Origin: a virus
Strand: one strand, 5' to 3'
DNA: 64,000 nt
IMG/VR virus record: IMGVR_UViG_3300035661_000043
Span: 1-64,000 of that record
Under the pieces are notes generated by a model. The model was not told the DNA's origin and did no database searches. It saw nothing but the letters and a program-made list of their open reading frames with translations. Shown here in pieces: positions 1-64,000 of the stretch. The translations under genes and the position numbers were made by a program. The stretch's first letter is position 1. Every line of letters starts with the position of its first letter.

Positions 1-525
1 GATTATATCTGGTCCGTTACAAATGTATTCAATGCAAGTAATAGTTCATCTAGTCAACCAAATATATTTGATCTTGAATACCAATTGCGAATGAATGATA
101 TGAGGGATTTAACCTCAACAAGTATAGTTTATTATGAACAAGTTATGTAGCATATTTCTTTGCTACAACATAGATTGAATGCAGATAGGCAGTTTGATTT
201 TAACCGACTTGAAGGTAAATTGTATCTCAATCTTAATTGGGATGTCAAGATTCAAGAAGGTACTTGGATCATGTTGGAATGTTACGCGGCATTAGATCCA
301 GAAACATCTCCTAAAATGTGGAATGAGAGATTATTTAGGGATTATGTAATTGCATTAACTAAGATGCAATGGGCACAAAACCTGAGTAAATATCAAGGTA
401 TGTCATTACCTGGAGGTGTGACTCTGGATGGACAGACAATGTATAATGCAGCACAGGATGATATCGAGAAAATTGAAAATCAGATCATGAATTCTCTGGC
501 ACCACTCTCGTTCTTCATGGGATAA
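1..525 (+). CDS. gp13: Neck protein gp13, 5'-truncated by the window; one in-frame TAG at 88-90
   Basis: C-terminus QWAQNLSKYQGMSLPGGVTLDG is typical of gp13; frame is open from base 1 if TAG is read. Confidence 0.9.
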
Positions 526-540
526 AGATCTTAGTCTAAT

Positions 541-650
541 ATAGTTACATTACAACCGAGCGGTGGGGGGCAACTAAGATTATCCTTTTAATATGATTGT
601 ATATTGCCTAGAACTCTTGTAAACCCCTCTTAGCAAAATATTTTTCACAC
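541..650 (+). repeat. About 110-bp intergenic repeat, copy 1
   Basis: Identical to 29241-29349 except for one G in a homopolymer. Confidence 0.95.
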
Positions 651-812
651 CAGAGGGAAATCCCTAGAAAATTGTTTAGAACTGTAAAAACACACAGCTA
701 AGTGATTGATCTATATACACTTTTTTGATCGTTTTTTGCGTACTAAGGGGTATCCCTTACCTTTTTGATAGAAAACACAGTTTTTTAAGTTTCACACAAA
801 GTTTCACACACC

Positions 813-1073
813 ATGTCTCTTCATGATGATCTACAGTTAATTAACACAAGGACGGCAGAGAAACTTGCTATTCCAAGAAAGATCAATGGTGTAAATTTTG
901 ATGGTACGATTGATATATCAATTTCAGGAGGTGGGACATCTGGTGACTCCACTTCAATTGCTGGTGTTCCAGTTTCAGTTGCTTCTTTAACTAATGGTGA
1001 TATACTATAGTACTCTGGTTAGAGTTGGGTCAATGTTGGCCAAGATAATATAACAGATGGTGGGAATTTCTAA
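813..1073 (+). CDS. Small tail-fibre-associated protein (2 TAG)
   Basis: PRKINGVNFDGT fibre motif; reads through TAGs to a TAA that overlaps the next ATG. Confidence 0.7.
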
Positions 1074-2473
1074 TGTCAAATACAGTAAGAATTAAAAGAC
1101 GTGCATAGGGTGGTGCTTCGGGCGCACCGGCTAGTTTGGCTAATGCTGAATTAGCCTACAACGAAACAGATGATGTACTCTACTATGGTAAAGGTACTGG
1201 CGGTAGCGGCGGTTCAGCAACAACAATAATACCAATTGGAGGACCGGGTGCGTTTGTAGGACTTACTGGTGCATAGACTATTGCAGGTGTAAAAACCTTC
1301 TCCTCTTCTCCAATTCTTCCTACACCTGCTACATCAGATAATTCCACTACTGCTGCGACAACTGCTTATGTTAAAGCACAGAATTATATAACAGGCAACC
1401 AGTAGATTACAGTATCTGGTGATGCAACTGGTTCTGGTACTACAGCGATCACTCTCACACTTGCTAACTCTGGTGTAACAGCTGGTACGTACAACAACTC
1501 TTCTACACAGACACAATCATTTACTGTTGATGCTAAGGGTAGAATTACTGCAACAGGTACACTGACTACTATTACTCCAGCTTGGTCTAGTATAACGTCT
1601 AAACCAACAACTATTTCCGGATACGGTATTACTGATGCTTATACCAAGACGGAAACGGATACATTGCTGCAAGGTCTTGATCCAAAGGCGTCCGTAAAAG
1701 TAACAACAACAGCCAATATCACACTGTCTGGCACACAAACGATCGATGGTGTCGCTGTGAGTGCTGGAGATAGAGTTTTGGTTAAGAACCAATCTACCCC
1801 TTCACAGAACGGTATCTATATTGTAGCGGCAGGTGCTTGGAGTCGTTCTGCTGATATGAATATCTGGTCAGAGTTCCCAGGTGCTTACATGTTTGTAGAG
1901 GAAGGTTCTACGCAGGCAGATTTTGCATTCGTGTGTACCTCTAATGCATCTGGTACACTAGAAACAACTTCAGTAGATTTTGTGCAATTCAACGGTGCAT
2001 CTGGTATCACTGCTGGTACAGGTATCGTTAAATCGGGTAACACAGTTTCAGTATCTGCAGAACTGGCTGGTTATCACAACAATGCGACAAACGGCATCAT
2101 CGCTAGAACTGCTGTCGGTACGATCGCAGCAAGAACCCTGGCAGTCTCCGGAACAGGTATTTCTATATAGAATGGAAATGGTGTTTCCGGTGACCCAACA
2201 TTCTCCCTATCTGCTGCACTTTCTACCGTCGGTGGTCTTACTCCCGCAGTAGACCAGTTAGCATACTACACAGGATCGGCAACTGCTGCTCTTACTACAT
2301 TAACAACATTTGCTAGATCTTTGTTGGGAAATACTGATGCATCTACAATGAGAACTACTCTGGGTCTTGGTACAATAGCAACACAATCAAGTTCAAGCAT
2401 AAATATTACCGGTGGTTCTATCACCGGTCTTACTTCATTCGATAACATTACTATCGACTGCGGCACATATTAA
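1073..2473 (+). CDS. Tail fibre-like virion protein (several TAG)
   Basis: RIKRRA*GG..LANAELAYNE N-terminus, QTIDGV..GDRVLVKNQ..QNGIY motif, IDCGTY end; 467 codons to TAA. Confidence 0.8.
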
Positions 2474-2497
2474 TTTTGAACTTGAGGATGCTATAGC

Positions 2498-2662: not shown

Positions 2663-4366
2663 ATGGCAAACACCCTACTATTAAAGCGATAGTCAACGGC
2701 TAGTGCCGCACCTACTACAGGACAACTAGCACTAGGTGAACTCGCAGTCAATAGTAGGGATGGTACTTTATTTCTAAAACGAAATAATGGTACTACTGAC
2801 TAGATCGTAAAAGTCTGGACAGATCAATAGCTGATAAACACCAGTCAGCTCATCAATAACTCAAATTTCATCACAAGCACTCAAGCCACAACAACAATCG
2901 GTTCTGGTGTAACAGGTCCTATCTTCCTGAACATTTAGAACTCAGGTGTCGGAAATTCTTCAGGTTTCAACTTCTTGAAGTCTAATGATGCTGCTGGTAT
3001 ATCTGTAACAGAATTCTCAGATGATTCTACTCTGTATGAATTCTTCATGTCTGATAATCCAGATGGAGGAGATTCATTTAGTTGGAGATGGACTGACTGG
3101 CAGGGTGCCAACGGATTATGGAACCCAATGTTGATTGGTGGCAGATGTACGACAGTACTGTCATCCACAATTTCAATGAATGGTGTCCTGACGCAGTCAA
3201 TGTCTCGTTGGTATACGACTAGAAACACAACTGCTGCTAATGCTGCACAGAATATTGCCGCTTACAACACACCTGCTTTCTTGAAGATTGAAGGCACAGG
3301 CACTGTGACAATCACAACTCTGGATATCAATGGATATTCAGCCTGGAGTGGTGTAGTTTTCAGCATTCGGTTCATATCCAGTACTCAATTTGAGTGGGGG
3401 TATGGTGGTCCGAATTTCACTGCTGTCCAGACCTTAGATCTTGTAGAAGGTCCTATTACACTTTCAAATGGCGTAGTTGTTACATTTTCCTAGACAACAG
3501 GTGCTGTTACAGGTGACCGGTTCCAGTGCAGAATTTGGTACATAACGAACAATGATCTGCAGACTACACAGTTCAGAGGGAATATCTATCCAGACGGGTA
3601 GAATACAAGAACTAGCGGTACTGCTTCTAGATACTGGTCAAATACATACTCTCAAATCTTCACATCTAGTGCTACTACGGGTACCGCACCACTTTCTATT
3701 GCATCAACTACACTAGTCAACAATCTAAACGCGGATTTGTTGGACGGTCAGCATGCAAGTTCATTCCAACCAGCATTAGTCTCTGGGACTAATATCAAAA
3801 CCGTAAACGGTATTTCTGTTTTAGGCACAGGAGATATCAACACATCTGGTGCTTCTGCATATGAAAAGCAAATATTCAGTGCTCCTACCGCGGGACAAAC
3901 ATCATTCACAATCTCAGGCGGTTATCCTGCTAATAAGATTGAATTCTTCAGAAACGGGGTGAAGTTAGTAGCGGGTCTGGATTATGATGCAACATCTGGG
4001 GCTTAGATCACACTTGTTGGATTCTCTGCAGCTGCAGGTGATGTGTATGAGGCGTACTGGTTTGATTCGATTACTACATAGACACAAGTTCAAGTAAGAG
4101 ATGGTGGGTAGGATTCTGGCATGATCATGGACTCTTTCCCGGGTGAAGTGTGGCATATGAAAGCGGGGAATAGTCTCAGACTTCCGGCTAATCCAGCTAT
4201 TGGCAGTTTTGTTAAGATGCACAAATCATCTGGTTTCTAGATGTCTATCCTGCGAAATGGTTAGAATATCATGGGGTTGCAGGAAGACATGACAGTCAAT
4301 GTATACACTGCAGTATAGATAGACTTTATATATGTAAGTGCTACTTATGGGTGGGCAGTTAACTGA
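2663..4366 (+). CDS. Tail fibre-like virion protein (many TAG)
   Basis: LKR*STA..GELAVN, NLNADLLDG and LVSGTNIKTVNG repeats; joins ORFs 2975 and 3737 in frame; TGA stop. Confidence 0.8.
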
Positions 4367-10506: not shown

Positions 10507-10535
10507 GAATTATATAGATTGCAATGTTCCAATGA

Positions 10536-11497: not shown

Positions 11498-12844
11498 ATG
11501 CTACAAAATAATCAATCGCTGATAGATAATGATGAATGGGAAGTTCTTACTCCATCTGGGTGGCAAGACTTTTCTGGTATACTGATAACAGAAAATCAAG
11601 ATACCATCACTTTAGACTCAGGATTAACTTGCACAGAAAATCACAAAGTATTGAGAGCCGGAGTGTGGGTAGAAGCAAAATAGATAAATCACACAAAGAA
11701 TGTTAATCAAACCGTGTATGACTTAACTGATGTGACGAATGGTCATGCATATTATACAAACTCGGATATTAGTCATAATTGCAATTTCCTAGCACTGGAT
11801 GAATTTGCATTTATTCACCCCAATGTAGCAGAAGATTTCTTCGCATCTGTTTATCCTACTATTTCATCAGGTAAAACTTCAAAATTGATGATCATTAGTA
11901 CACCTAATGGTATGAATTTGTTCTATAAGATGTGGATGGATGCACTATCTGGGTCAAATGGTTTCATGCCTGTAAAGGCGATTTGGTCTGATATTCCTTC
12001 TAGAGATCAAAAATGGGCAGATGAACAGAAAGCAGTTCTGGGAGAAGTTAAGTTCTAGCAAGAATGTGAGTGTAACTTTATTGGTGCTAGCAATACACTT
12101 ATTTCTGGCAATAAACTGAGAACTATCCCATTTGAAAAGCCAATTGCTATATCACCAACTCTTCGTGTGTACGATGAACCCAAGCCCGGAAATTCATATG
12201 TAATGAATGTGGACACTGCAAGAGGGACAGGTAATGATTATTCTTCATTTACTATTATCAATGTCACATAGTTGCCATATAAAGTTGACGCTGTATATGC
12301 AGACAATGAAGTTAGCCCACTGCTTTTCCCAGGTATTATATTGAATCTGGCTAGAAAATACATTAATGCATCAGTATTAATAGAAACCAATGATATTGGA
12401 GAAAGTATAGCATCTTCTCTGTATTATGATTATGAATATGAAGAAGTTATTATGTCAGACAGCAAAGGTGGAATGTAGGCATTTGGTGGAGAGAAACCAG
12501 GGCTGAGAACTACTAAAAAGACAAAATCAGTAGGATGTTCTGTCCTCAAGACATTGATTGAAAATGATCAATTAATCATTCGCGACTCCGAGATTCTATA
12601 TGAGTTATCAAATTTTGCTCTAAAGGGATCATCATACGAGGCGGAGAACGGACATGATGATAGAGTAATGACACTCGTTCTTTTTGCATACCTTACTACT
12701 CAGAGTGTTATGACCGAATTGACAAGTTAGTAGGCAAAAGCAAGAATTATTGAACTGAGACAGAAACAAACAGAAGATGCAATGATGCCGGCAGGATTCT
12801 TTTCTGATGGGACAGAATCTGAATCAGATACATTTCATTTCTAA
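11498..12844 (+). CDS. gp17: Terminase large subunit, piece 3 (IntC-2 plus C-extein with Walker B and nuclease domain)
   Basis: YYTNSDISHN/CNFLALDEFAF, STPNG, VDTARG and HDDRVM motifs; 449 codons to TAA. Confidence 0.88.
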
Positions 12845-12918: not shown

Positions 12919-14895
12919 ATGGCAATTTCCGTTTCACCATCAGTTGTTGTTACTGAAAAAGATCTGACAAACATCGTCCCAGCAGTATCTAGCTCTGTTG
13001 GTGCTGCGGTTATTGATGCAGCATGGGGTCCAGTTATGGATGTCACAAGCATTGATTCCGAAAAAGCATTAATTCAGCGCTTTGGTAAACCAAACAACTC
13101 AAACTTCGAAAACTGGTTCAACGTAGCAAACTTTCTTGGCTATAGTGCCTCGGCTCTTGTTGTTCGTACCGATACCGCTGGACAATTCAACGCTGTTTCT
13201 ACCCTAACAGGCAGAGTAGGTGTTGTGACTATTGGTGCCGGTGGGACAGGTTACATTCCCTCTGAGACTTCTGTTTCATTCTCTGCTCCTAATGTGACCG
13301 GTGGCATCCAAGCCACAGGAACTGCTATCATTTCTGGTGGTGTGATCACTGGTGTCACTGTTACTAACCCAGGTTCTGGCTACACCTCAGCTCCTACAAT
13401 CACTATTGCTTCTACTGGATCTGGTGCTAGCGCTACTGCTACTGCTACAAAAGTAGATGGTGGTATCAAGATCAATAACCTTGATACATACCAAATGTCT
13501 TATGCAAATGGTGAAGGTGTAGTTGGAGAATTTGCTGCTCGTTATCCAGGTTCGCTTGGTAATTCTCTGACTGTATCTATGGCAGACTCTGCTACATTTG
13601 ATACATGGGCATATAAAGCAATCTTCGGTATCAAACCCGGCACTTCCAACTTTGCTACTTCAGTTGGCGCGAGCAATGATGAATTGCATGTAGTAGTGAT
13701 TGATGCAGATGGCAAGTGGACAGGCACTGCCGGCACTGTTATTGAATCATACGCCTTCCTATCTAAAGCATCAAATGCTAAGAAATCTGATGGTACTTCT
13801 TCTTATATTAAGAATGCTATCAACAATGCATCACAATATGTTTACTGGATGGATCACCCAATTGCAGTTTCTGGTACCGGTGCTGACTGGGGTACTCTGG
13901 CAGTAAATGGTAGTGCATATAAGAGTCTTACAGCTGTTGTTACATCTACTCTGGCTGGTGGTGCCGATGATTATGCATCAACGAATGCAGATAAGATCGA
14001 TGCATATGCATTGTTCAACAATGATGAACAGTATGATGTCAGCTTGGTTCTGGCAGGTGATGCAGATAGAGAAATAGCTCGTTTCATTATCGACAATATC
14101 GTTGAAGTCCGTAAGGATTGCATGGCATTCGTTTCCCCGAAGAATGTTAGTACTGGTGAGCCAATCATCGGCTCTAATGCGGATGCAGATGAAGCAATCA
14201 TCAAGTATAAGAATGGTGATGGCGCTTCTCTGACTTCACTACCTTCTAGCTCTTACGTTGTGTTTGATTCTGGTTACAAGTACCAGTATGACCGCTACAA
14301 TGATGCATATCGTTGGGTCCCACTGAACGGTGATATTGCAGGTCTGTGCGCTCGTACCGACTATACAGATGACCCATGGTTCTCTCCTGCAGGTTTCAAT
14401 CGCGGTCAGGTAAAGAATGCTATCAAGTTGGCATACAACCCAACCAAGGCTAGCCGAGACACATTGTACTTGAATGGTGTTAATCCAGTGGTTTCTTTCC
14501 CAGGTCAGGGTGTAGTTTTGTATGGTGATAAAACAGGTCTGGCTAAGCCATCTGCTTTTGATCGTATCAATGTACGTCGTCTGTTCATCACTTTGGAAAA
14601 GGCTATTGCTACTGCAGCTAAGTATCAACTATTTGAATTCAATGATGGTTTTACCCGTGCGCAATTCCGTAACATGGTTGAGCCATTCCTGCGCGATGTA
14701 AAAGGTCGTCGTGGTATTATCGACTTCAAGTGCATGTGTGATGAGACAAATAACACAGCAGAAGTTATTGATGGTAACAGATTTGTTGCTGACATTTACC
14801 TAAAGCCATCTCGTTAGATTAATTTTATTCAGCTTTCCTTTGTGGCAACACGCACAGGTGCAAGTTTCGATGAAATTATCGGTGGCACAGCATAA
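12919..14895 (+). CDS. gp18: Tail sheath protein gp18
   Basis: PWFSPAG, FDRINVRRLF and KPSR*INFIQLSFVATRTG; single TAG at 14815. Confidence 0.95.
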
Positions 14896-15739: not shown

Positions 15740-17902
15740 ATGTCTAATCCAATATTCAATTTTTTCGGGTTCTAGATCAAACGATCTGAAGAGGAGAAAC
15801 AGCTTCCTAAATCAGTTGTTGCTCCAAATCTAGCAGATGGTTCTATTGTTATTAATCAGAACTTGGGAACTGGTATTCTCGGAGACTCTTATACTCTTGC
15901 ATTTGACCCAGACGGTCAGATCACAAATGAGATCGATCTCGTTCGTAGATATAGAGAATTGTGCAGATATCCAGAAGTAGCAGAAGCTATTGAAGATATC
16001 GTTAACGAAGCAGTGATTATCGAAGGTGAAGATAAACCTGTTGAAATCAATCTTGAGTATCTTAAGATCTCAGATTCAATCAAGAAAAAGATCACAGAAG
16101 AATTTGCCAAGATTCTTTCACTGATGAACTTCAATGAAGAAGGGTATGATCTATTTGAAAGATGGTATGTGGATGGGAAGATCTTTTTCCATATATTACT
16201 GGATGAAAATCATTCAAATGGTATCAAAGAGCTAAGATTAATTGACCCACGTAAGATCAAGAAGATCAAGAATGTGATCAAAGAGAAATTAGCAAGTGGT
16301 GTAGAGATTGTCAGGGAAGTACAAGAATATTACATATACAATGACAAGGGTATTGCAGGCGGCACTAGTCAGGGTGTAAGATTAAGTGTTGATTCTGTTG
16401 TGTACTGCCATTCAGGTCTGATTGATTCACAAACTGGATTAGTTCAATCATATTTGCATAAAGCAATCAAACCTGCTAACCAATTAAAAATGTTGGAAGA
16501 AGCGGTTATTATCTACAGATATACTCGTGCACCAGAGCGTAGGGTATTCTATATTGATGTTGGAAATTTACCAAAAGGTAAAGCTGAGCAATACGTCAGT
16601 GATATGATGAATAAGTTCAAGAACAAGTTATCATATGATGCTGTTACTGGGGAATTGGCAGATTCTAAGAGACACTTGTGTTTGGATATGAGCACACAAG
16701 TACCATTGCTTGATGGCAGAACACTGTCTATTTCCGAGATTGCTGCAGAGATGGATCAATCAGATAAACCTCTATGGGCATATTCATGTGATCCAGTGAC
16801 TGGCAAATTTGTGCCGGGTAAAATTACCTGGGCCGGTGTATCTAGACCAAATGCACAAGTCATGCGTATTACTCTTGATAATGGAAAAACCATTACTTGC
16901 ACCCCAGATCACAAATTTCCAGTTTGGGACAAGGGATTCGTAAAAGCTGAAGATCTATATATTGGCGAATCAATGATCCCGCATTATACTCGTTGGAAGG
17001 AAATTGCTAAGGGTTCTTCCAAGAATTACGAACAAATTTTCGAGAATGATACTGGAGAATGGAAATTCACACATCAAGCAGTATCCGATTGGAAAGATTG
17101 TATTACATCGCGCCGTTCATCTACATCATGTGTTTCTTCTGATAACAGTGCAGATAGACAAATTGATTCTCTAATGTTCCGTAACCATAAAATTGCAAAA
17201 ATTGAGTGGTTAGAAGAAACAATGGACACTGGATGTCTGACTATTGACGGAGATGAAGAATTCCACAATTATCATACATTCGCTCTATCTGCCGGAATTT
17301 ACACCCAGAACTAGATGATGGAAGATTTCTGGATGCCTAGGCGCGGAGATAAATCAACAGAAATCACGACACTTCCAGGGGGTCAGGGTCTCGGTCAGTT
17401 GGATGATTTGGATTATTTCAAGGATAAACTATATCGTTCTTTAAATGTACCTAAATCTAGATTCGTTCCAGATAGTGGTTTCTCTATTGGTAGATCAGAT
17501 ACTATTTCTAGGGATGAAGTAAAATTTGCTAAATTTGTTGGCAAATTGCGCAACAAATTCGGAAATATCTTTTTAGATATATTGCGCGTTCAATTGATTT
17601 CTAAGGGTATTTTCTCTAGTAAAGATTGGGAACAATTTAAAGAGAAGATTAAAGTCATTTACGCTAAAGATAACTTCTTTGCCGAATTAAAAGAAAATGA
17701 AGTTCTTACTACTAGACTTTAGACTGCATTGCAATTGGATCCATTTGTCGGCAAATATGTAAGCAAAGAATACATCCAAAGAAAAGTACTAAGATTCACA
17801 GATGATGAAATAAAAGAAATAAATACACAAATGGAAGCCGAGATCAAATCTGGTGATATTACTGACCCAGTAGCAATGATGCAAGAACCACCTCAGGCAT
17901 AA
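15740..17902 (+). CDS. gp20: Portal protein gp20 with a cis intein
   Basis: RAPERRVFYIDVGNLPK, EDFWMPRR and TEITTLPGG motifs; 3 TAG. Confidence 0.95.
16679..17311 (+). mobile_element. Mini-intein (211 aa) in gp20
   Basis: Starts CLDMST, has block B TCTPDHKF, ends GIYTQN; the +1 codon is TAG. Confidence 0.9.
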
Positions 17903-19406: not shown

Positions 19407-20435
19407 ATGGGAAAAGAACAAGATCTGTTAGAAGAATTGCGTCTCCGTGCTGCCGCTCTAGTTGAAGCCAAAGAAAAGGCTTGTGACAAAGAGGATGAGA
19501 AAGATATGGATGACGAGAAAGATGAAATCGAGGATGGTGCCGAAGATTCTGATGATGATTCTGATGATGATTCTGATGATGATTCTGATGATTCTGATGA
19601 TTCTGAAAAAGATGACAAGAAAAAATCAAAGAATTCAAAGAATTCAAAGAATGAATCTAAGGAAGTTGACATGAGCATCGAATCTATTTTCGAAGGTCAG
19701 GATCTGTCCGAAGAATTCAAAATCAAAATTACTGCACTGTTCGAAGCATCAGTTGCACAAAAAGTTTCCGCTATTGAAGAATCCTATGTGAAAGCAATGG
19801 GAGAATTCAAGGCAGAAGTATCTCAGCGGACAATCTCTGAGTCCGCTGAGGTAGTAGAGGGACTCGTTGAAAGAGTTGATGGATATCTCGACTATATGGT
19901 TGAGCAGTGGATTGAAAATAATGAGATTGCCCTTGAACGTGGTATCAAAGCTGACCTGTTCGAAAGCTTCATGACTGGTATGAAAGGTCTATTTGAAGAG
20001 CATATGATTAATGTCCCGGAAGACAAGATCGAAGTTCTAGAATCCCAAGCAGCCGAAATTGAAGAATTAGAATCTAAGGTTGACTCTGTTCTCGCAGAAA
20101 ATGTAGAACTGAAGCAAACTCTAAAAGGAATCGCTAAGCAAAATCAAATCAAGGAAGCAGCCAATGGCCTTTCCGAAGTAGAGATGGAGCGATTTGTAGA
20201 ACTAGCTGAAGAACTTACATATGACAATGAAGAAGTTTTCGGTAAGAAATTGTCCGTAATCCGCGAACAATTCTTCTCGCAGACCGATGACTCCAAGCAA
20301 TTGGTAGAGTCAGTGGCCAATGTGACTACTGATGAGCCTCTGGTAGAAGTTGAAATGCCAAAACGTGCTCTGAGCGAAGGTGTTGACCCTACAATCGCAG
20401 CTCTGGCAGCTCGCATCGCCCGTAATTCTTACTAA
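19407..20435 (+). CDS. gp22: Prohead scaffolding protein gp22
   Basis: LSEEFK..FEA and YLDYMVEQW..N motifs; acidic low-complexity N-terminus. Confidence 0.9.
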   Translation: MGKEQDLLEELRLRAAALVEAKEKACDKEDEKDMDDEKDEIEDGAEDSDDDSDDDSDDDSDDSDDSEKDDKKKSKNSKNSKNESKEVDMSIESIFEGQDLSEEFKIKITALFEASVAQKVSAIEESYVKAMGEFKAEVSQRTISESAEVVEGLVERVDGYLDYMVEQWIENNEIALERGIKADLFESFMTGMKGLFEEHMINVPEDKIEVLESQAAEIEELESKVDSVLAENVELKQTLKGIAKQNQIKEAANGLSEVEMERFVELAEELTYDNEEVFGKKLSVIREQFFSQTDDSKQLVESVANVTTDEPLVEVEMPKRALSEGVDPTIAALAARIARNSY

Positions 20436-20460
20436 TCCATTAACTCTAAAGGAAAATAAA

Positions 20461-21729
20461 ATGGAACAAAATGTCCAACAATTGGTCAAAAAGTGGTCTC
20501 CTATTCTGGAGCACGCCGATATGCCAGCAATCAAGAGCGCTCAAGTTCGCGCTGATACTGCTGTTCTGTTGGAGAACCAAGAGCGCGAAATGACCCGTGC
20601 TACTTCCTCTCTGAACGAAGATGCAGCCAGTAACGCTGTTGGTGCTATGAGTGACACCGGTGGTGTTGCTAAGTTTGACCCAGTACTGATCAGCTTGGTT
20701 CGCCGTGCTGCTCCTGCAATGATCGCTTATGATATCTGCGGTGTTCAGCCTATGTCCCAGCCTACAGGTCTGATCTTCGCTATGAAGAGCAGGTACGGTT
20801 CACAAGGTGGCCCTGAGGCACTGTTCAACGAAGCTGATTCTGACTTCTCAGGCAAGGGCACGCATGCTGGTTCTAACCCAGTCAACGGTACTTACACTAC
20901 TGGTACTGGTATGACTACCACCGAAGCAGAAACCCTAGGTTCTACCAACGGTACTCCTGGTGGCACATTCAATCAGATGGCATTCACCATTGAAAAGACT
21001 TCCGTGGTTGCACAAACCCGCGCTTTGAAGGCTGAGTACACTGTTGAACTGGCTCAAGATCTGAAGTCTGTTCATGGTCTGGATGCTGAACAAGAACTGA
21101 GCAACATCCTGTCTCAAGAAATCACCAACGAGTTGAACCGTGAAATCATGCGTACCGTGTACACCTCTGCTAAGTTAGGTGCTCAAGTTGGTACTGCTAC
21201 TGCCGGTACTTTCGATCTGGATGTGGATTCTAACGGTCGTTGGTCTGTTGAGAAGTTCAAGGGTCTGATGTTCCAAATCGAACGCGAAGCTAACCGTATC
21301 TATCAAGAGACACGTCGTGGCAAGGGTAACATCATCATCGCGTCTGCCGATGTTGCTTCTGCTCTGGCAATGGCTGGTGTTCTGGATTATGCTCCTGCAC
21401 TGAAGACTGATCTAAATGTTGACGAAGCTACTAGCACCTTCGCTGGTGTTCTGAATGGTCGTTACAAAGTATATGTTGACCCATTCGTTGCTAACGGTAC
21501 TGCTGAACAGTTCCTGTTGGTCGGCTATAAGGGTGCAAATCGCTTTGATGCTGGTATGTTCTACTGCCCATACGTTCCACTGCAAATGTATCGTGCAACA
21601 GATCCACAAACCTTCCAACCAAAGATTGCTTTCCGTACACGATATGGACTGGTGGCTAACCCATTCACCACTAACAGTGCTGATAGCAACATTTATTACC
21701 GCAAAATTAAGGTTACCAACTTGTTATAA
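20461..21729 (+). CDS. gp23: Major capsid protein gp23 (no TAG)
   Basis: GVQPM..PTGLIFAM, RALKAEYTVELAQDL and FYCPYVPL motifs. Confidence 0.98.
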   Translation: MEQNVQQLVKKWSPILEHADMPAIKSAQVRADTAVLLENQEREMTRATSSLNEDAASNAVGAMSDTGGVAKFDPVLISLVRRAAPAMIAYDICGVQPMSQPTGLIFAMKSRYGSQGGPEALFNEADSDFSGKGTHAGSNPVNGTYTTGTGMTTTEAETLGSTNGTPGGTFNQMAFTIEKTSVVAQTRALKAEYTVELAQDLKSVHGLDAEQELSNILSQEITNELNREIMRTVYTSAKLGAQVGTATAGTFDLDVDSNGRWSVEKFKGLMFQIEREANRIYQETRRGKGNIIIASADVASALAMAGVLDYAPALKTDLNVDEATSTFAGVLNGRYKVYVDPFVANGTAEQFLLVGYKGANRFDAGMFYCPYVPLQMYRATDPQTFQPKIAFRTRYGLVANPFTTNSADSNIYYRKIKVTNLL

Positions 21730-25153: not shown

Positions 25154-26056
25154 ATGACCGGTAATGATTTAGCTGATATGTTATCCAAGTCTGGATACAA
25201 AATAAAGTCGAAAACAAGTACATCTGTTGTTGTATTAGTATCTGGAAATCGCCTTAATGCTATGAAAGAGTTAGCTGTAAAATTACACAATCTAGGTGCT
25301 GTAATGGATCCGAATGCAAAGGGTTAGTAGATCGGTGCCATTATGATTGATAAAATTAAGGTATTAGTAAAATCAGATGGGAAGACTGGTGGGCTAGATG
25401 TAGAATAGGCGGCTATTGAATCTTTAACTAATGCTATAAATGGGGCATTATGTCAGGCTGGAGAGCCAATTACTATTAAAATGCCACATCGAACAGTATC
25501 TGGGATCGTTGGTGTAGAAAAAACTGCTGGCACACCTAAGTAGGATTTTCACTTAGTAGATGAAAATGATAGACCTGTAGTTTTCATCTCTCATAAAAAA
25601 GGTTCTAAACCAAATGATTTTCAACAATGGGGTGGCATGACAGAAAAAGAAATTGCTGCTCATAAAGAAGTAATCCAATTCGCTTTGGAATGTAGAGCTA
25701 GCCCGCATGTTGGATAGAAGATACCTTAGGGTATGTCTGTGTATAAGAAAATAAAAAGTAATGATCTAAAGATGATGTAGGTATTTGGTGTCAATTCTCT
25801 AAGATAGAATGGTAATGATATCAATTCCGTAGATGTACTAATCCAAGGAGACCCGGGTGTCAAATTTATATCTGGAGTTACATTTGAATTAACGGGTACA
25901 GGTCACATACATTATTACGGCGATATCCCTAGTGGCGGATTTGAACCAGTTTTAGCATGCATATATAAAGGTGACAGAGATCAATTCGGTATTAAAGGTG
26001 CAAGATTTTCTATCTATCCATTCGCAGGAAGAAATTTTAAGGTCCAATTGAAATGA
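25154..26056 (+). CDS. PD-(D/E)XK restriction-fold-like protein (about 8 TAG; absent from the ORF track)
   Basis: 301 codons ATG to TGA; GTPK*DF..VFISHKKG..FQQWGG motif. Confidence 0.7.
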
Positions 26057-37024: not shown

Positions 37025-37082
37025 CATTCACTATAAGATTATGATATAATGAACTTTGTTATTATGAAAGAGGTGATCAAAA

Positions 37083-37667
37083 ATGTATTTGTATGACTTA
37101 GAGACACTTGGTGTAAATGAAACAGCTGTAGTACTTTCTATAGGTTGCATTTATATCAGTTCACCAGAACCGTGTTCATATCATGATTTGATGAAGAATT
37201 CTTTCTTCGTGAAATTGGATGCTAAACATCAAATCCAAAAACTGGGTCGACAAGTTACTTCCTCTACCGTAGATTGGTGGGCAAAACAAAGCACCGCTGC
37301 TAAGCATACATCATATATCCCAAGTAAGAATGATGTGACACCTGACGTGGCGCTTCAGCAACTACGGAAGTTTGTCTATGACAACACCGGGCAATCTCGA
37401 GTCAAGTGCTATACTCGTGGATCCATGGATGTTATTGTTTCAGAGCATTTGGCTAAGCAAGTCGACATGAAACTTCCTTGGGTGTATAATAACTTCAGAG
37501 ATATTCGTACTGCTATCGATATTCTATACACACTCAGTAAAGATGGGTATGTGGCAGTAGACCAGACAAAATGCTTTGGTTACACAGATGACATGACTAT
37601 TGCGCACAACCCAGTGCACGACTGTGCTCGCGATGCTGCAATGCTACTTTTTGGAAAGACTGAATGA
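37083..37667 (+). CDS. DEDDh 3'-5' exonuclease (DexA-like)
   Basis: DLETLG, RDIRT and HNPVHDCARD motifs. Confidence 0.85.
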   Translation: MYLYDLETLGVNETAVVLSIGCIYISSPEPCSYHDLMKNSFFVKLDAKHQIQKLGRQVTSSTVDWWAKQSTAAKHTSYIPSKNDVTPDVALQQLRKFVYDNTGQSRVKCYTRGSMDVIVSEHLAKQVDMKLPWVYNNFRDIRTAIDILYTLSKDGYVAVDQTKCFGYTDDMTIAHNPVHDCARDAAMLLFGKTE

Positions 37668-39169: not shown

Positions 39170-39339
39170 GATCAAAAAGTTTCCGACTATTGATTTAGCT
39201 GGGACTTTTGTATATTACCAAATACACGTTCACTTTTCTTCATTCCCACAAACGGGAAGTAATTTTTCTTCGATATCAACAATTTTCAACCTTTACTATA
39301 TCACCATATAGTATATTTTATTAGAACAGGACCTCATAT

Positions 39340-39984
39340 ATGGATCTTTCTAAACTTTCCGATTCCGAATTGTTAAAACTCTACAATAAAGCAGAAGAGG
39401 AAATCTCCGCTCTTGATAACTTACAAATGGCACTCAAGATCTCTTTAAATTCACTTTACGGTGGAATTGGAAATCAAGGGTTCCGTTTCTTCAACTCTAA
39501 TGTTGCAGAGACAATTACATTGACCGGTCAGTATGTTCTTCGGTCTATTGAGCAAAGCATCGATGATAAACTGAATAAAGTATTCAAGACAGAGGGTCAC
39601 AAGTACCTGATCTATATCGACACTGATTCTGTCGTCGGAGATACAAAAATTTTAGTTAACGGCACTGAAACAACAATTGCAGATTATTATGATTCTAAGA
39701 CGGAGTTCATCAAAAGAGATGAATTTAATAAAGACTATGTTAAAAAATGTGATTCAGATTACACACCTACTGTGAATCCAAATACACAGGTAATGGAAAA
39801 TAAATCTGTTTCATATGTTATGAAACATAGAGTAAAAAAGAGAATGTATAAAATTACTGTTGGTGGAAAAGAAGTAATTTGTACGAATGATCACTCAATT
39901 ATTGTACGCAGGAATAGTCTCATTCTTTCCGTTATTCCCTCAGACATTCTGAAGACTGATGAGTTAATACATATTAAGCACTGA
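39340..39984 (+). CDS. gp43: DNA polymerase B, middle piece plus split-intein IntN
   Basis: KISLNSLYG, YIDTD/SVVGDT junction and block B TNDHS; TGA stop. Confidence 0.92.
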   Translation: MDLSKLSDSELLKLYNKAEEEISALDNLQMALKISLNSLYGGIGNQGFRFFNSNVAETITLTGQYVLRSIEQSIDDKLNKVFKTEGHKYLIYIDTDSVVGDTKILVNGTETTIADYYDSKTEFIKRDEFNKDYVKKCDSDYTPTVNPNTQVMENKSVSYVMKHRVKKRMYKITVGGKEVICTNDHSIIVRRNSLILSVIPSDILKTDELIHIKH

Positions 39985-40043
39985 ATTTGTATGAACTAAT
40001 ACATGACTAAAGATCGTGATTTAATTATAGAAAGATTAAAAAA

Positions 40044-40997
40044 ATGCAATTAGAGTTCACAACTGATTTTCAGATTGAAGATTTAGGTGAGATCGAAGAA
40101 GATGTTTATGATATTGAAACAGAAGATAATCATAATTTTTTCGGCAACGGTGTTTTAGTACACAACAGTTGTTACATCAATGTCGCCCCAGTTGTACAGA
40201 AATATCTATCAGATATTCCCGATAAGTCTGAGATTATTAAACGATTAGAAAAATTGGCAGTTGATATTATTCAAAAGAATGTCAATGATATTGTGAATGA
40301 TGTCTGTAAGCAAATGAATGTCTACGAGAACAAACTATCATTTAAATTAGAGGTATGTGCAGATAAGGCAATCTGGTTAGCAAAGAAAAAATATGTAGTA
40401 CGTGCATATTCTTCTGAGGGTGTTACATACTCAAAACCAAAATATAAAACGATTGGTTTGGAACTCGTCCGTTCGTCTACTCCAATGTTTATCCGTAAGA
40501 AGTTGAAGGATGTTCTCCCATTGGTGTTTGACACAGATCAAAGCACAATTCAGAAATTTTTATTAGAAACTCGTAAAGAGTTTGATCAATTGTCGGTGCA
40601 AGAAATTGCATTTCCAAGATCTGCTAACAATTTAGAGGAATATTCCGATAGTCAAAATATCTACAAAAAGGGTGCTGGTGTGTCTACACCAATACATGCC
40701 CGCGCAAGTTTGTTGTATAATGATCTAATACGGAAGAAAAATCTTCAAGGGCAGTTTCCAATTATTGTTTCTGGTGCGAAGATCAAATTTGTGTATCTAA
40801 AACTACCAAATACTCTAAGAGAGAATGTCATTGCTTTCCCTGCTGATGAGACTCTTCCTATTGAATTTGACCTACACCAGAAGGTTGACAGAGATATTCA
40901 ATGGGACAAAACGATGATTGCTTCTACACAGATCATTCTAGATTCAATTGGTTGGTCAGCTATCGAACAGTCAAGTTTAGATGACTTTTTTGGTTAA
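40044..40997 (+). CDS. gp43: Split-intein IntC plus DNA polymerase B C-terminal piece
   Basis: VYDIE..NFFGNGVLVHN/SCY junction, KKKY, GLELVRSSTP and the clamp-binding SLDDFFG. Confidence 0.92.
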   Translation: MQLEFTTDFQIEDLGEIEEDVYDIETEDNHNFFGNGVLVHNSCYINVAPVVQKYLSDIPDKSEIIKRLEKLAVDIIQKNVNDIVNDVCKQMNVYENKLSFKLEVCADKAIWLAKKKYVVRAYSSEGVTYSKPKYKTIGLELVRSSTPMFIRKKLKDVLPLVFDTDQSTIQKFLLETRKEFDQLSVQEIAFPRSANNLEEYSDSQNIYKKGAGVSTPIHARASLLYNDLIRKKNLQGQFPIIVSGAKIKFVYLKLPNTLRENVIAFPADETLPIEFDLHQKVDRDIQWDKTMIASTQIILDSIGWSAIEQSSLDDFFG

Positions 40998-41115
40998 TAG
41001 TGAAAGATACAAAAGTTTAAACGGAAAAGAAACTTGGTATTTTTTGATCCATCTTTCATTAAGAGGAAACTCAGAAATTCGCTGAGTGGTTTCATATTCA
41101 AGGAGATATTTTAAA

Positions 41116-42189
41116 ATGAGTAAATTATTGCAAAAAATGTTGAAAGCAGGTTCTGCAGGGGCTACAATTCTGTCAGAAGCTGATATGTTCAAAGAACAAG
41201 ATCTCGTTCAGACATCGCTTCCTATTATTAACATTGCATATTCTGGTAAAGTAGATGGTGGGTTCGGCTCCGGTCTAACAATTCTGGCAGGTGAATCAAA
41301 GACATTTAAAACTGCTCTGGCACTATATTGTCTGAAGGCGTATTTGGACAAATACAAAGACGGTATTGGTGTTCTATATGATTCTGAGGGTGGTTGTAAC
41401 CCACAATATATTAAGTCATTTGGTATTGATCCAGCCAGAGTTGTTCACGTTCCAGTTGAACATGTTGAACAACTGAAGTTTGACTTTGTTAAGAAACTAG
41501 AAGAAATCGAAAAGGGTGATAAAGTATTTTTCTTGGTTGATTCAATTGGTCAAATTGCATCAAAGAAAGAAACTGATGATGCGAGTGATGAGAAATCAGT
41601 GGCTGATATGTCACGTGCCAAAGCTATTCGGTCTCTCCTCCGTCTTGTGACAGTGCAATTGAATAAAAAGTTGCTACCATGTTTCATGATCAATCACGTC
41701 TATCAAGAAATTGGTATGTTCCCAAAGACTATCATTCCTGGTGGAACAGCTGTCACATATTCCGCGAACACTATCTTTGTTATTGGAAAATCACAAGACA
41801 AATCTTCAGATGGTGAATTGAATGGTTGGCACTTCACATTGAATATTCATAAATCTCGATTTGTCCGTGAAAAGGCTAAATTCCCATTCACTGTGAATTA
41901 TGAAACAGGTATTAAGCCATATTCCGGTCTTTTGGACATGGCAATTGAATTGGGTGCAATTGTATCTCCTTCGTCCGGATGGTACTCTGTAGTTGATCTG
42001 GTGACTGGAGAAATTTCATCTAAAAAATATAGAAAAAAGGACTGTGATTCGGAAGAATTCTGGAGTCCTATCTTAGAATCAAAGGAATTTAAGCAAAAAG
42101 TGATTAATCGTTATATGCTATCTTCTCCTAGTATGACAGATGAAGATATTGACACCGCAATGAGCGAGATTGGAGATGACAATGAGTGA
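41116..42189 (+). CDS. uvsX: UvsX recombinase
   Basis: AGESKTFKT, YDSE, DSIG and DMSRAK motifs. Confidence 0.95.
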   Translation: MSKLLQKMLKAGSAGATILSEADMFKEQDLVQTSLPIINIAYSGKVDGGFGSGLTILAGESKTFKTALALYCLKAYLDKYKDGIGVLYDSEGGCNPQYIKSFGIDPARVVHVPVEHVEQLKFDFVKKLEEIEKGDKVFFLVDSIGQIASKKETDDASDEKSVADMSRAKAIRSLLRLVTVQLNKKLLPCFMINHVYQEIGMFPKTIIPGGTAVTYSANTIFVIGKSQDKSSDGELNGWHFTLNIHKSRFVREKAKFPFTVNYETGIKPYSGLLDMAIELGAIVSPSSGWYSVVDLVTGEISSKKYRKKDCDSEEFWSPILESKEFKQKVINRYMLSSPSMTDEDIDTAMSEIGDDNE

Positions 42190-42732: not shown

Positions 42733-42814
42733 ATAAGCCTTTAGTTGGTTGAGTAAAGTCATCGGGAACGCCAATTCCGCGGGTGACACCTATTCATAAT
42801 TGTGGAGTTTAGTA

Positions 42815-44257
42815 ATGCAAATTGAGTCAGTGATTATATCGAGTCTTTTGATTAGTGAGGACTACGCCAGAAAGGTAGTTCCTCACCTTGAAAAAGAATA
42901 TTTCGCAGAAAGAGTTGATGCTCTCATTTACGATGAAATCAATACTTTCTTCTTGAAATTCAATGTGCTTCCTACAAAGGATGTACTGCGTGTGCAAATT
43001 ACAGACAAGTCAGGTATTTCTAATTCTGATGCCGAAGACGCTCTTGCTAGGATACAAGGTCTTTCAACCGAGCCGAAAAATCTAGATTGGCTAATAGAAA
43101 AGACTGAAGCATTCTGCAGAGATCGTGCTCTGTACAATGCTATCATGAAATCTATCACCATCATCGACGGCAAAGATCAGAAACACTAGCGGGAAGCAAT
43201 CCCTAGTATTCTTCAAGAAGCATTGGGGATTTCTTTTAACACTGCGGTTGGTCACTAGTATCTTGATGATGCAGAAAAACGGTTTGATTTTTATACTCGT
43301 GTTGAATCTAAGATCGTCATGGATATTGAGATGTTCAATAAGATCACAAATGGCGGACTGAGCAGAAAAACTCTAAACATCTTATTAGCTCAATCTGGTG
43401 GTGGTAAATCATTGGTGATGTCGCACATGGCCGCAGGATGTTTACGAGATGGATTAAATGTACTCTATATCTCTATGGAGATGTCCGAAGAAAAGATCGC
43501 AGAACGTATCGATGCCAACTTACTTGATGTTGAAGTTGACAAGATCAAAGATATTGGTAAGGATATCTTCTGCACAAAAATTTCTAATCTTGCAGCTAAG
43601 ACTCACGGAAGATTGTTTATCAAGGAGTATCCATCCGGTGCAGCACACACAGGTCATTTCCGCGGTCTGTTAGAAGAACTGAAAACTAAGCAAGATTTTA
43701 CCCCTGACATTATCTTCATTGATTACCTTGGCATCTGTGCTTCATCTAGGGTGAAGATGGGAGGGTCAGTTAACTCTTATGCTTACCTGAAATAGATAGC
43801 AGAAGAACTTCGTGCATTTGCCACAGAGAATGATGTGCCTGTCGTGACTGCAGGTCAAGTGAATCGTGGTGGGTACAACACCACAGATTTAGACATGACT
43901 GACACATCAGAAAGTTTAGGTATTGCTATGACCGCAGATGTGATGCTAGGTATTGTTCGAACTGAAGAACTCGATGATATGAATCAGTTGATGATGGTAC
44001 AACTGAAAAATAGATATTAGGATCCCACTATCAATAAAAGATTTACTGTCGGTCTAAATCGCGCTAAGATGAAGTTATATGATCTGGAAGGGATGGCAAA
44101 TTCCGGTTTCACACCAGATGCAAAAAATAAAACATATGCACCAAAAATTGCATAGAACACCAGAGAAGACACACCGGTATCAGAAGATGTTATAGAATAG
44201 TTACCGGTTGCAGGTATTAAATCTAAAACAGTCAACACACAAGGATTCGCGTTTTGA
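42815..44257 (+). CDS. gp41: Replicative helicase gp41 (several TAG)
   Basis: GGGKSL, SMEMSEE, IDYL, K*IAEELR and LKNRY motifs. Confidence 0.95.
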
Positions 44258-57459: not shown

Positions 57460-57519
57460 AGTATGTTATAATTACTCAACAACAAAAGAGAAACACTCTT
57501 TCTAACTTAATAGTTTAAT

Positions 57520-57609
57520 GGAAGTTTGGCAGAGTGGTTTATTGCCGCGGACTCTAAATCCGCTGAATCAGAGATGGTTCCACGAGTTCGAATCTCGTAA
57601 CTTCCTCCA
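57520..57609 (+). tRNA. Amber-decoding tRNA (anticodon CTA) with a serine-type body
   Basis: GGAAGTT/AACTTCC-T-CCA acceptor, GCGGA-CTCTAAA-TCCGC anticodon arm, long variable arm GAATCA-GAGA-TGGTTC, T arm GTTCGAATC. Confidence 0.93.
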
Positions 57610-61431: not shown

Positions 61432-61553
61432 CGGATGGTCCGATGCTATGACTATCCCATATCTCTGTGATGCTGATGATAGAACTTCTTGTGGTGCAAT
61501 GAACTACTTGATGAAGTGATATAATACATAATGGACCAATCAAATAGGAAATT

Positions 61554-63107
61554 ATGAAAAAGACGATTGAACAAAAATACCGTAAGCTGGATGAAATTTC
61601 TCACGTACTTTTGAGACCTGGAAGATATCTAGGTAGTATTACTCCGCACACCGCTGATGCATGGACTGTGACTGAATCTGGTACTATGCAAAAGAGGAGT
61701 CTGACATGGACTCCTGCTTTGCTTAAGATCTTTGATGAGATCATTTCTAACTCTGTTGACTTTAGCAAGACAGAAGAAGGAAAGCATCTGGATACTATCA
61801 AGGTGGATTTGAACCGGATAACTGGTGAGATCACAGTATACGATAATGGCGGTATCGCTGTGATCAAACACAGTGAATATGATCAGTATATCCCGGAGAT
61901 GATCTTTGAATTGCGCTCTGGATCAAATTTCGATGATTCGGAAGATAGCATGGCAACCGGGCAGAATGGAGAAGGCTCAGCCCTAACAGCTATTTTCTCC
62001 TCTGAGTTCGAAGTACAGACTGCAGATGGATCTAATCAATTCATCCAGACTCGCACCGACAATTCAAGGAAGATTTCCGACCCTAAAGTCAAGACATCAG
62101 ATAAACACTTCACGAAGATTCGATTCATTCCGGACTATGAAAAGTTCGGTCTTGATGGTCTTGATACCGATAATGAAGCTAGATTGATTAAGCGTGTATA
62201 TGATGTAGCTGGCTGCAACCCAAAACTGAATGTATATCTCAATGGGAAGCGGATCAAGATTGCCTCATTCTCTGACTACGTGAAATTGTATACATCTGAT
62301 TTTGTGCACGAAGAAAACGATCACTGGCATGTTGCATTGGCTGCTTCGGAAGATGGATTCAATCATGTATCATTTGTGAATGGTACAGAAACTACCACCG
62401 GGGGGAATCATATCAGCTACATCGCAGATCAGATCACGAACAAGCTGCGCGACTTCTTCAAAAAGAAACACAAAGTAGATGTGAAGCCAGGAGATATTCG
62501 GAATCACATGCTCCTGTTTATTGATGCCGGTATTATCAGACCAAGATATTCAAGCCAGACTAAAGAAGATCTGATTACAGAATCAAAGAACTTTGGTACT
62601 AGTATTGAAATTTCAGATAAGTTCATCCAAAAGGTTATCAAATCAAATATCGTTCAGTCTGTATTGGATTGGGTAAATGCAAAAGCTGCAGCAGCTGAAG
62701 CAGCGGAACTTCGCAAGAAATCAAAGGACATTGACAAGGCGAACCTACGAAAGATCAGCAAGTTTACTGATGCCACACAGAAAGAAAATCGTGATCAATG
62801 CATGATTTTCATTGCCGAGGGTGAATCTGCTGCAAGTTCTATTCTGTCTGCGCGTACAGGCAATATCGGTTGTTACCCATTGAAGGGTAAGCCGATTAAC
62901 GCTATGGCTGCTACAACTAAGGATCTTCTTGATAATAAAGAATTCACTGAGCTGATGACCGTCACAGGTCTGAAAATTGGTGAGAAAGTTAAAATAGAAG
63001 TAGATTCACTATATGAAATCTATATTGATGATATCTCATATATTGTGTCTACAGAAGATATCATTATTCACAAAGATAAACAATATATTGTAAAAGATTT
63101 AATCTGA
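61554..63107 (+). CDS. gp39: Topoisomerase II ATPase subunit gp39
   Basis: HVLLRPG, DEIISNSVD, GQNGEG, EGESA and PLKGK motifs; lacks the DxD part of TOPRIM. Confidence 0.95.
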   Translation: MKKTIEQKYRKLDEISHVLLRPGRYLGSITPHTADAWTVTESGTMQKRSLTWTPALLKIFDEIISNSVDFSKTEEGKHLDTIKVDLNRITGEITVYDNGGIAVIKHSEYDQYIPEMIFELRSGSNFDDSEDSMATGQNGEGSALTAIFSSEFEVQTADGSNQFIQTRTDNSRKISDPKVKTSDKHFTKIRFIPDYEKFGLDGLDTDNEARLIKRVYDVAGCNPKLNVYLNGKRIKIASFSDYVKLYTSDFVHEENDHWHVALAASEDGFNHVSFVNGTETTTGGNHISYIADQITNKLRDFFKKKHKVDVKPGDIRNHMLLFIDAGIIRPRYSSQTKEDLITESKNFGTSIEISDKFIQKVIKSNIVQSVLDWVNAKAAAAEAAELRKKSKDIDKANLRKISKFTDATQKENRDQCMIFIAEGESAASSILSARTGNIGCYPLKGKPINAMAATTKDLLDNKEFTELMTVTGLKIGEKVKIEVDSLYEIYIDDISYIVSTEDIIIHKDKQYIVKDLI

Positions 63108-63155
63108 AGTCAGACAATTTGGCTATATGTTTGTCAGAAATCGAAAGGATTGGAA

Positions 63156-63719
63156 ATGGAAATTAAAGTAAAAAAAATTGATGTCAATCATCAAAACATG
63201 ACAAAATATCTTGGTGATAATAATGTTATCAGAAAGACTAATCTTAGAAGCAGTCTGCGCTTCGGCAAATTGGTTATGTGCGCAGACGCAGACGCAGATG
63301 GTTAGCTTCGGCTAACTAATCTATAAACTAATTTAAGAAAGAATATTGGCTCACATATTTGTGGCTTAATTATGGCAGGGCTGAAGAAATTTTGGCCCGA
63401 ATTATTTTCTCTAGGTGCAGTATATCGATTCCAGACACCGATTATGAAAGTTATGATCGGCAAGGATGAAAAATATTTCTATTCACTTGATGAATTCTCT
63501 GTTTGGGAAAAGACTAATACTAAATCTTTCAAGACTCGGTATCTGAAAGGTCTTGGCTCTTCTACCGCGGAAGACTTCCGAGGTTATTTTGCTAACATGG
63601 ATAACAATCTAGTGCAGATTACGTTACAATCTACTGATGATCTAGACATTGTTGATCTGGTATTTGGTAAGGAAACAGGAGCAGCTGATGCTCGTAAAGT
63701 CTGGTTGGATTTGGAGTAA
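63156..63719 (+). CDS. gp60: Topoisomerase II subunit gp60 with a 48-nt coding gap (63303-63350)
   Basis: ADADADG, then the gap, then SHICGL..YLKGLGS; the gap contains TAG, a UUCG hairpin and TAA. Confidence 0.88.
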
Positions 63720-63722
63720 TCT

Positions 63723-64000
63723 ATGGCAAAAATGAATATTAAAGACTTTTTCGGCACTGCCGTGCGCGACTACTCCATTTATGCATGCGAACGTGCTATT
63801 CCATCTGGCTGTGATGGTCTCAAGCCAAGTCAGCGCAAGGTGTTGTATGGAATGACAAAAGAATTTCCTACTCAGGAAGTGAAAGTTTCCATCTGCGCGG
63901 CTACTATCCAAGCAGTGACCGCATATCATCATGGTTCTTTGGAAGCAGTAGTCACAGGAATGGCACAGAACTTTGTTGGTTCTAATAATGTCCCATTGTT
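63723..64000 (+). CDS. gp52: Topoisomerase II subunit gp52, 3'-truncated by the window
   Basis: RAIPS..DGLKPSQRKVLY and AYHHGS motifs. Confidence 0.92.
   Translation, partial: MAKMNIKDFFGTAVRDYSIYACERAIPSGCDGLKPSQRKVLYGMTKEFPTQEVKVSICAATIQAVTAYHHGSLEAVVTGMAQNFVGSNNVPL

Follow-up and report, generated by a model that had tools for sequence, protein, structure and literature searches.

We analysed a 64,000-nucleotide stretch of viral DNA, positions 1 to 64,000 of the IMG/VR record IMGVR_UViG_3300035661_000043 (the window), whose genes are interrupted by in-frame amber (TAG) codons. Sequence comparisons indicated that the phage of the window, together with a sister lineage, very probably reads TAG as a sense codon for serine. 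Serine is the best supported residue because four lines of evidence agree: codon pairs with the sister phage, alignment columns of distant homologs, the residue that follows an intein in the portal protein, and the body of a phage transfer RNA (tRNA) with the anticodon CUA, termed tRNA(CUA). An initial annotation, made from the letters alone, had proposed a reassignment of TAG to serine across the whole window. The serine assignment was supported, whereas the codon proved not to be used uniformly, with large gene blocks avoiding it.

The viral contig is 79,755 bp long with a G+C content of 38.9%, and the window covers its first 64 kb. CheckV completeness was 45% for the window record and 35% for the sister contig, both of which are fragments. 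The estimate of 45% suggests a complete genome of approximately 170 kb. Gene names were assigned by alignment to the annotated record of HTVC008M. The gene order was syntenic with that phage from the neck genes to the terminase, gp18, gp19, gp20, gp21-23, UvsY/UvsW and gp55, and further through gp47/46, gp45/44/62, RegA, DNA polymerase and UvsX to gp41. Judging from this HTVC008M-like order, the window phage is therefore a T4-like myovirus. Its tail sheath showed approximately 50-55% identity to those of the Pelagibacter phages Mosig and HTVC008M and the Methylophilales phage Melnitz, and the public runs containing the phage were microbial-mat and sediment metagenomes. The sister phage (IMG/VR sample 3300048672) is represented by contigs G001 (= L096-98), L006, L005 and L008, which tile positions 1-46306 of the window at approximately 83% nucleotide identity, with mismatches mostly at codon position 3.

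When open reading frames (ORFs) were delimited greedily by TAA and TGA only, 158 in-frame TAGs were found. On the 79.8-kb contig, 74 ORFs reached 100 amino acids or more; they contained 116 TAGs among 20,491 codons (5.7 per 1000), or approximately 7% of the serine-plus-TAG codons, and 40 of the 74 carried at least one. These ORFs ended in TAA (43) or TGA (31), as had been claimed for the joined genes, and TAG was required as a terminator in no case. Hallmark genes were fragmented under the standard code and became single ORFs once TAG was read through, in agreement with the view that in-frame TAGs interrupt essential genes. The TAGs listed by the initial annotation at 14815, 33713, 43793, 31221, 29594, 35813, 15773, 4262 and 11249 were all verified in frame, as were the tandem TAG-TAG pairs at 12728/12731 and 25325/25328. 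Alignments to HTVC008M and approximately 100 T4-like contigs ran on across TAG. Sites spanned by a distant-homolog alignment with at least 6 of 20 identities on each side numbered 35 for TAG, and one each for TAA and TGA (plus strand for the latter two). Coding density was dropped as a discriminator, as freeing any of the stop codons raised ORF coverage from 67% to 83-85%.

The 25-45 kb stretch had near-exact matches in contigs from four runs of four studies. The contig pieces listed for runs X2, X3 and X4 covered 40, 18 and 4 TAG codons, respectively, none of which was altered; no listed variant fell at a credible TAG codon. Furthermore, the sister phage shared TAG at 30 identical codons. Because the same TAGs recur in contigs of four runs and are shared with the sister phage, they are not a sequencing artefact; with at least 116 sites across essential genes, and with divergence near the 30 shared sites biased to codon position 3, sequencing or assembly errors (for example, miscalled TCG) or pseudogene marks have a negligible chance of accounting for them. 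Therefore, we concluded that the in-frame TAGs are genuine and read through. In-frame TAG was found neither in approximately 100 more distant T4-like loci nor in L004 (50% amino acid identity), and the recoding looks confined to a small lineage among the sampled relatives.

To assign the residue, each candidate was scored against the substitution spectrum of the sister alignment itself. Among 10,341 aligned codons, 57 paired TAG with a sense codon, besides the 30 TAG-to-TAG pairs. The sense partners encoded serine in 32 cases (TCT 16, TCA 6, TCG 6, TCC 2, AGT/AGC 2), glutamine in 13, alanine in six and other residues once each in six. The log-likelihood was -109.9 for serine, -166.5 for alanine and -167.1 for glutamine. 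Most of the serine partners were two to three base changes from TAG; the match is therefore at the protein level, which indicates selection on the amino acid.

The distant homologs ranked serine first as well, and glutamine was not dominant. Over 50 TAG columns, the log-likelihoods were -140.4 for serine, -146.8 for asparagine, -151.9 for threonine, -153.3 for alanine, -154.4 for aspartate and -154.8 for glutamine. HTVC008M as the lone reference gave no preferred residue (D7, R4, Q4, S4, T4), and the residue was resolved only by the close relative and by many homologs. The distant columns are the weaker evidence because TAG often stands in variable columns. Thus, the proposal that the TAGs occupy conserved serine columns held for some sites and failed for many others. 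At TAG 14815 in gp18 (...KPSR-x-INFIQLSFVATR), serine was found in 15 of 16 distant homologs, in the sister phage (TCC) and in T4 (KPAR-S-IN). The gp44 TAG at 33713 corresponded to KYRP-S-T in T4 gp44 (PDB 8unf/3u5z), and serine was also present in the sister phage and HTVC008M. In distant relatives, the residues facing the TAGs at 15773, 29594, 35813, 43256 and 44018 were E, P, K, D or N. Two of these TAGs lie in gp41, where 80 of 80 distant homologs had D at 43256 and N at 44018, and the sister phage had the serine codons TCG and TCC, respectively; at 43793 in the same gene, the sister codon was TCT. In gp55, TAG 29594 was present in both phages, and TAG 29900 was TCA in the sister phage and serine in five of seven distant homologs.

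The portal protein gp20 provided a functional constraint. Pfam Portal_T4 matched the gene in two stretches with Intein_splicing in between, and the intein was not present in the sister phage. The window portal reads KRHL, then the intein from CLDM to YTQN, and then TAG-MMEDFW, whereas the intein-free portal of the sister contig L096 reads KRHL-S-MMEDFW. At the position of TAG 17312, distant portals carry S or T. Protein splicing requires Cys, Ser or Thr as the first residue of the downstream extein (+1), and glutamine at this TAG would therefore block maturation of the portal. The large subunit of the terminase lies in three ORFs (10078-12844, plus strand), the middle of which gave a Pfam intein-domain signal below the cut-off. 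The sister phage is without part of this terminase region.

A candidate decoder was found in the window. The tRNA(CUA) forms a regular 7/5 cloverleaf with an encoded CCA end, U at the discriminator position 73, and a long class-II variable arm with a 6-bp stem and a 4-nt loop. It carries G1-C72, G2-C71, A3-U70 and C11-G24, and these elements belong to the tRNA-Ser identity set of E. coli. The six nearest class-II tRNAs in the related T4-like loci that were fetched were all tRNA-Ser (GCU/UGA), with identities of 73-80%, and three of the six also had the U73-CCA end. The variable and T arms resembled those of the tRNA-Ser(UGA) of L029. The best tyrosine match was 73%, and the leucine matches were 64% or lower. 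In the phage database, the annotated full-length matches were all tRNA-Ser, and the single E. coli match was also a tRNA-Ser. Serine identity is independent of the anticodon, leucine and tyrosine identity require A73, and G73 has moderate weight for tRNA-Ser identity in E. coli (PMC9976931). The interpretation that fits the element best is thus a phage tRNA-Ser with its anticodon changed to CUA. ARAGORN labelled it 'tRNA-Pyl', its default for a CUA anticodon; this label was rejected because of the long variable arm and the serine-type sequence.

A two-hexamer scan for sigma-70 sites upstream of the tRNA(CUA) found no promoter. The extended -10-like element TGTTATAAT may serve as its promoter. 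The sister sample contained a syntenic tRNA(CUA) (L121:7754-7844, IMGVR_UViG_3300048672_000535), also ending in U73-CCA. Its body differs: in the ARAGORN fold, the acceptor has 8 bp and the T stem 4 bp. The acceptor ends are alike (GGAAGG..CCTTCC-U-CCA in L121 and GGAAGTT..AACTTCC-U-CCA in the window). A tRNA pattern search gave one non-tRNA match in viral contigs, and only an unrelated GC-rich class-II tRNA(CUA) in metagenome contigs. The latter, of 88 nt with G73, occurs in GC-rich groundwater metagenome contigs (L119:1042-1129 and L120:1145-1232).

From these features, we propose how the code may operate. The tRNA(CUA) would descend from the tRNA-Ser genes that are common in related T4-like phages, by a change of its anticodon to CUA. 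Seryl-tRNA synthetase (SerRS) recognises its tRNAs by their general shape and long variable arm and not by the anticodon, so that the host enzyme should charge the tRNA with serine. The resulting seryl-tRNA(CUA) would compete with host release factor 1 (RF1) for UAG and insert serine there. Most genes for the virion, packaging, recombination and helicases tolerate TAG. The genes that avoid it are those with the highest expression (capsid, scaffold and tube), the polymerase and clamp core, and the block for topoisomerase and nucleotide metabolism. The charging by SerRS, the competition with RF1 and any timing role are what we infer from the features above.

Several observations weigh against the serine assignment or favour an alternative reading of TAG, and they are given here together. 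The first concerns the uneven use of TAG, which was strongly heterogeneous among the 74 ORFs (chi-square 170, 73 degrees of freedom, p = 1e-9), with 34 TAG-free ORFs totalling 7,925 codons (Table 1). TAGs were also in excess near ORF ends, with 20 in the last tenth of ORFs compared with approximately 12 expected and six within 10 codons of the TAA or TGA stop, and a few of the late TAGs may act as terminators. A directly followed TAG in 47% of cases and serine codons in 33% (p = 0.003). An A at +4 favours amber suppression, and the bias hints at competition with host RF1. One further TAG lies inside a hairpin of a gene-60-like bypass and is probably not decoded. These points would suit a mixed or time-dependent codon that is a stop, or is weakly read by near-cognate host tRNAs, until the phage tRNA has built up and that means serine from then on, with some terminal TAGs terminating. 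Against this, no gene needs TAG as a terminator, and the T4 early/middle-class genes gp46, gp41, gp55 and UvsW are TAG-rich, whereas the late capsid genes are TAG-free; the tail tube gene contained no TAG either. Expression level and core replication function fit the distribution better than an early/late split. We consider such mixed decoding improbable, and it would refine the serine reading without contradicting it.

The second observation is the number of glutamine partners, 13 of 57 (11 of them CAG), which is far above the ordinary exchange between serine and glutamine. Some glutamine or mixed decoding may therefore occur at TAG. In addition, the recoded-phage papers in the searchable literature all give glutamine for TAG, and the window phage could be a further code-15 phage like those already described (crAss-like, Lak and others). 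The glutamine-paired sites were unconserved, and none stood in a conserved glutamine column. TAG and CAG are separated by a single T/C transition, and CAG is 3.4 times as common as TCG in the phage; for these reasons, the excess probably reflects a mutational route between TAG and CAG at tolerant sites. Furthermore, glutamine lay approximately 57 log-likelihood units below serine on the close pairs and 14 below on the distant columns, it would block splicing at the portal intein, and the long variable arm and serine-type body of the tRNA(CUA) are unlike tRNA-Gln. A general glutamine code is thus very improbable.

The third set of observations concerns the choice among small or polar residues. 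The discriminator of the tRNA(CUA) is U73 and not the G73 of E. coli tRNA-Ser, and its charging is for this reason inferred from its relatives and not from the textbook identity set. On the distant columns, the lead of serine over asparagine was only 6.4 log units, and the weighted serine share was 17% at TAG columns compared with 31% at ordinary serine codons. Thus, TAG could stand for Thr, Ala, Asn or Cys if the U73 tRNA were charged by a synthetase other than SerRS; alanine was the second-best fit on the close pairs and asparagine on the distant columns, and Thr or Cys would also suit the intein +1 position. Serine was ahead in both likelihood tests, and the ordinary tRNA-Ser(GCU/UGA) of related phages also have U73. 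The acceptor stem (G1-C72, G2-C71, A3-U70) lacks the G3-U70 pair for alanyl-tRNA synthetase, and the synthetases for threonine, asparagine and cysteine read the anticodon and would not be satisfied by CUA. Another residue is accordingly an even more remote prospect than glutamine. Finally, neither a release factor (PF00472) nor a class-II synthetase core (PF00587) was matched in the window record or in the sister contig G001, both of which are incomplete.

The serine code may be compared with known systems. Stop-recoded phages with their own suppressor tRNA, among them crAss-like, Lak, jumbo and other gut phages, read TAG as glutamine (code 15) or TGA as tryptophan (Borges et al., bioRxiv 10.1101/2021.08.26.457843; PMC9523058; PMC7886860; PMC13037316). 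As in the code-15 phages, the window phage has in-frame TAG in hallmark genes, a phage tRNA(CUA), TAA and TGA kept as stops, and a recoded codon spread unevenly over the genes. Unlike the code-15 gut phages, it would use serine in place of glutamine, and it belongs to the T4-like myoviruses and stems from metagenomes of mats and sediments. Moreover, its most abundant late proteins avoid TAG and several early/middle-class genes use it. Some stop-recoded phages encode release factor 2 (RF2) or a synthetase, whereas no RF2 was seen in the available 80 kb. We found no description of TAG or UAG as serine in a phage in the searchable literature, which contained only TAG as glutamine and TGA as tryptophan; this agrees with the initial annotation, which knew of no such phage code. 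TAG is not known to encode serine in any NCBI translation table.

Amber suppressors that insert serine are familiar from the laboratory, namely E. coli supD, a tRNA-Ser with the anticodon CUA, and psu1+, derived from the T4 tRNA-Ser. The tRNA(CUA) of the window would resemble them as a tRNA-Ser whose anticodon was turned into CUA and which, since SerRS takes no account of the anticodon, gives serine at UAG (PMC9976931). supD and psu1+ are single laboratory-selected mutations that rescue amber mutants, whereas the suppressor of the window phage would be fixed in a natural lineage with more than 100 TAGs depending on it. Irregular (8/4) tRNA-Ser and allo-tRNAs have been described in bacteria and alpha-proteobacterial phages, and engineered allo-tRNA(CUA) variants insert serine or alanine in E. 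coli (Mukai et al., PMC5389517). That study reported no phage with TAG recoded to serine. The fold of the L121 tRNA(CUA) is like the 8/4 tRNA-Ser, unlike the regular 7/5 tRNA(CUA) of the window.

We also considered, as a tentative and somewhat doubtful model, a natural amber-to-serine code that was born within T4-like phages from their own tRNA-Ser and acts as a built-in dependency switch. Under this model, the tRNA(CUA) may have to be present before the phage can make the late sigma factor gp55, the terminase, the intein +1 nucleophile and the products of most tail and baseplate genes, and TAG may be kept out of the replication core and the most abundant proteins. In the sister lineage, this role may fall to the 8/4-type tRNA(CUA), which occupies the same locus and differs in structure.

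Stop-codon recoding in phages is usually annotated with TAG as glutamine (code 15). If TAG is serine in this lineage, gene callers would break its genes or mistranslate more than 100 sites, including the intein nucleophile. Amber reassignment in phages would then not be bound to one amino acid, any class-II tRNA with an anticodon-ignoring synthetase could seed a new code, and recoding would extend to T4-like phages outside the gut. The phage would also be a source of a natural serine amber-suppressor tRNA with U73 and a concrete system for studying how host RF1 is coped with.

The features discussed above are listed in Table 1. The most TAG-rich gene, a structural ORF, matched no Pfam family.

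Table 1 Coordinates and TAG content of gene blocks, genes and elements in the window contig.
Feature	Position	Strand	Details
Structural and packaging block	1-19.4 kb		5,778 codons, 50 TAGs
Most TAG-rich gene, structural ORF	2663..4366	+	12 TAGs; CAG or TCA in sister phage at several
Tandem TAG-TAG, C-terminal piece of terminase large subunit (11498-12844)	12728..12733	+	TAG-TAG also in sister phage
Tail sheath gp18 TAG	14815..14817	+	Gene 12901-14895; 26 conserved codons after TAG
Portal (gp20) intein	16679..17311	+	Inside gene 15740-17902
Portal intein +1 extein residue (TAG)	17312..17314	+	
Scaffold (gp22) and major capsid (gp23)	19407..21729	+	791 codons, 0 TAGs
Block including gp55, gp47 and gp46	21.8-32.8 kb		2,983 codons, 30 TAGs
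Tandem TAG-TAG in ORF 25154-26056 (8 TAGs)	25325..25330	+	Same in run X2 and X3 contigs
gp55 late sigma factor	29399..30028	+	TAGs 29594, 29900
gp46-like recombination nuclease subunit	31080..32786	+	9 TAGs; 32304 and 32490 are TCT in sister phage
Replication block: gp45, gp44, gp62, RegA, DNA polymerase pieces, UvsX	32883..42189	+	2,727 codons, 4 TAGs (binned 32800-42500)
Clamp-loader gp44 TAG	33713..33715	+	Gene 33668-34609; motif EKYRP-TAG-T
gp41 primase-helicase	42800..44257	+	6 TAGs: 43187, 43256, 43793, 44018, 44153, 44198
gp41 and neighbouring helicase			1,022 codons, 8 TAGs
Extended -10-like element TGTTATAAT	57464..57472	+	47 nt upstream of tRNA(CUA), just past stop of preceding ORF
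Phage tRNA, anticodon CUA	57520..57609	+	90 nt; ARAGORN; Rfam tRNA 54.1 bits
Topoisomerase and nucleotide-metabolism block	61.5-79.7 kb		4,601 codons, 7 TAGs

Other RNA features were observed in the window. ARAGORN reported a 'tRNA-Stop(tta)' at 50036-50111 (plus strand), which was rejected as an ochre suppressor, as Infernal gave the anticodon UUU with C33 and only one TAA site was spanned compared with 35 TAG sites. By Infernal, it is a tRNA-Lys(UUU) with an unusual C33 and the top score of the tRNA cluster (67.3 bits). An extra tRNA(CAU) at 52622-52692 (plus strand) was found by Rfam and missed by ARAGORN, relaxed settings of which gave mostly false tRNAs. Neither ARAGORN nor the Rfam and Infernal models yielded a tRNA-Ser(GCU) in the phage. 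An irregular class-II-like tRNA-like element (approximately 51069-51160, plus strand; L121:1100-1221) was 79% conserved between the two phages with a mismatched acceptor and an ambiguous anticodon, and may be a degenerate or non-canonical tRNA. A group I intron (54657-54849; Rfam RF00028, 66.4 bits) splits the anticodon loop of the tRNA-Met(CAU) at 54633-54896 (plus strand).

A permuted, two-piece transfer-messenger RNA (tmRNA) was located at 53257-53522 (plus strand; Rfam RF04321, 94.7 bits), for which ARAGORN gave the tag peptide ANADTFLMAA; a distant relative, L122, also carries a tmRNA. It is speculation that this RNA helps to clear ribosomes running off messages under TAG suppression.

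The topoisomerase subunit contains a putative translational bypass like that of T4 gene 60 at 63150-63380 (plus strand). The site reads ..CADADADG GGT, followed by TAG in the hairpin UAGC-UUCG-GCUA, an in-frame TAA, and then GGC and SHICGL, so that the take-off stop is the recoded codon TAG. DNA polymerase homology extended over separate ORFs at 37664-39169 and 40044-40997 (plus strand), between which lies a TAG-containing ORF of 264 amino acids (39190-39984). These separated ORFs may represent a split or an insertion in gp43.

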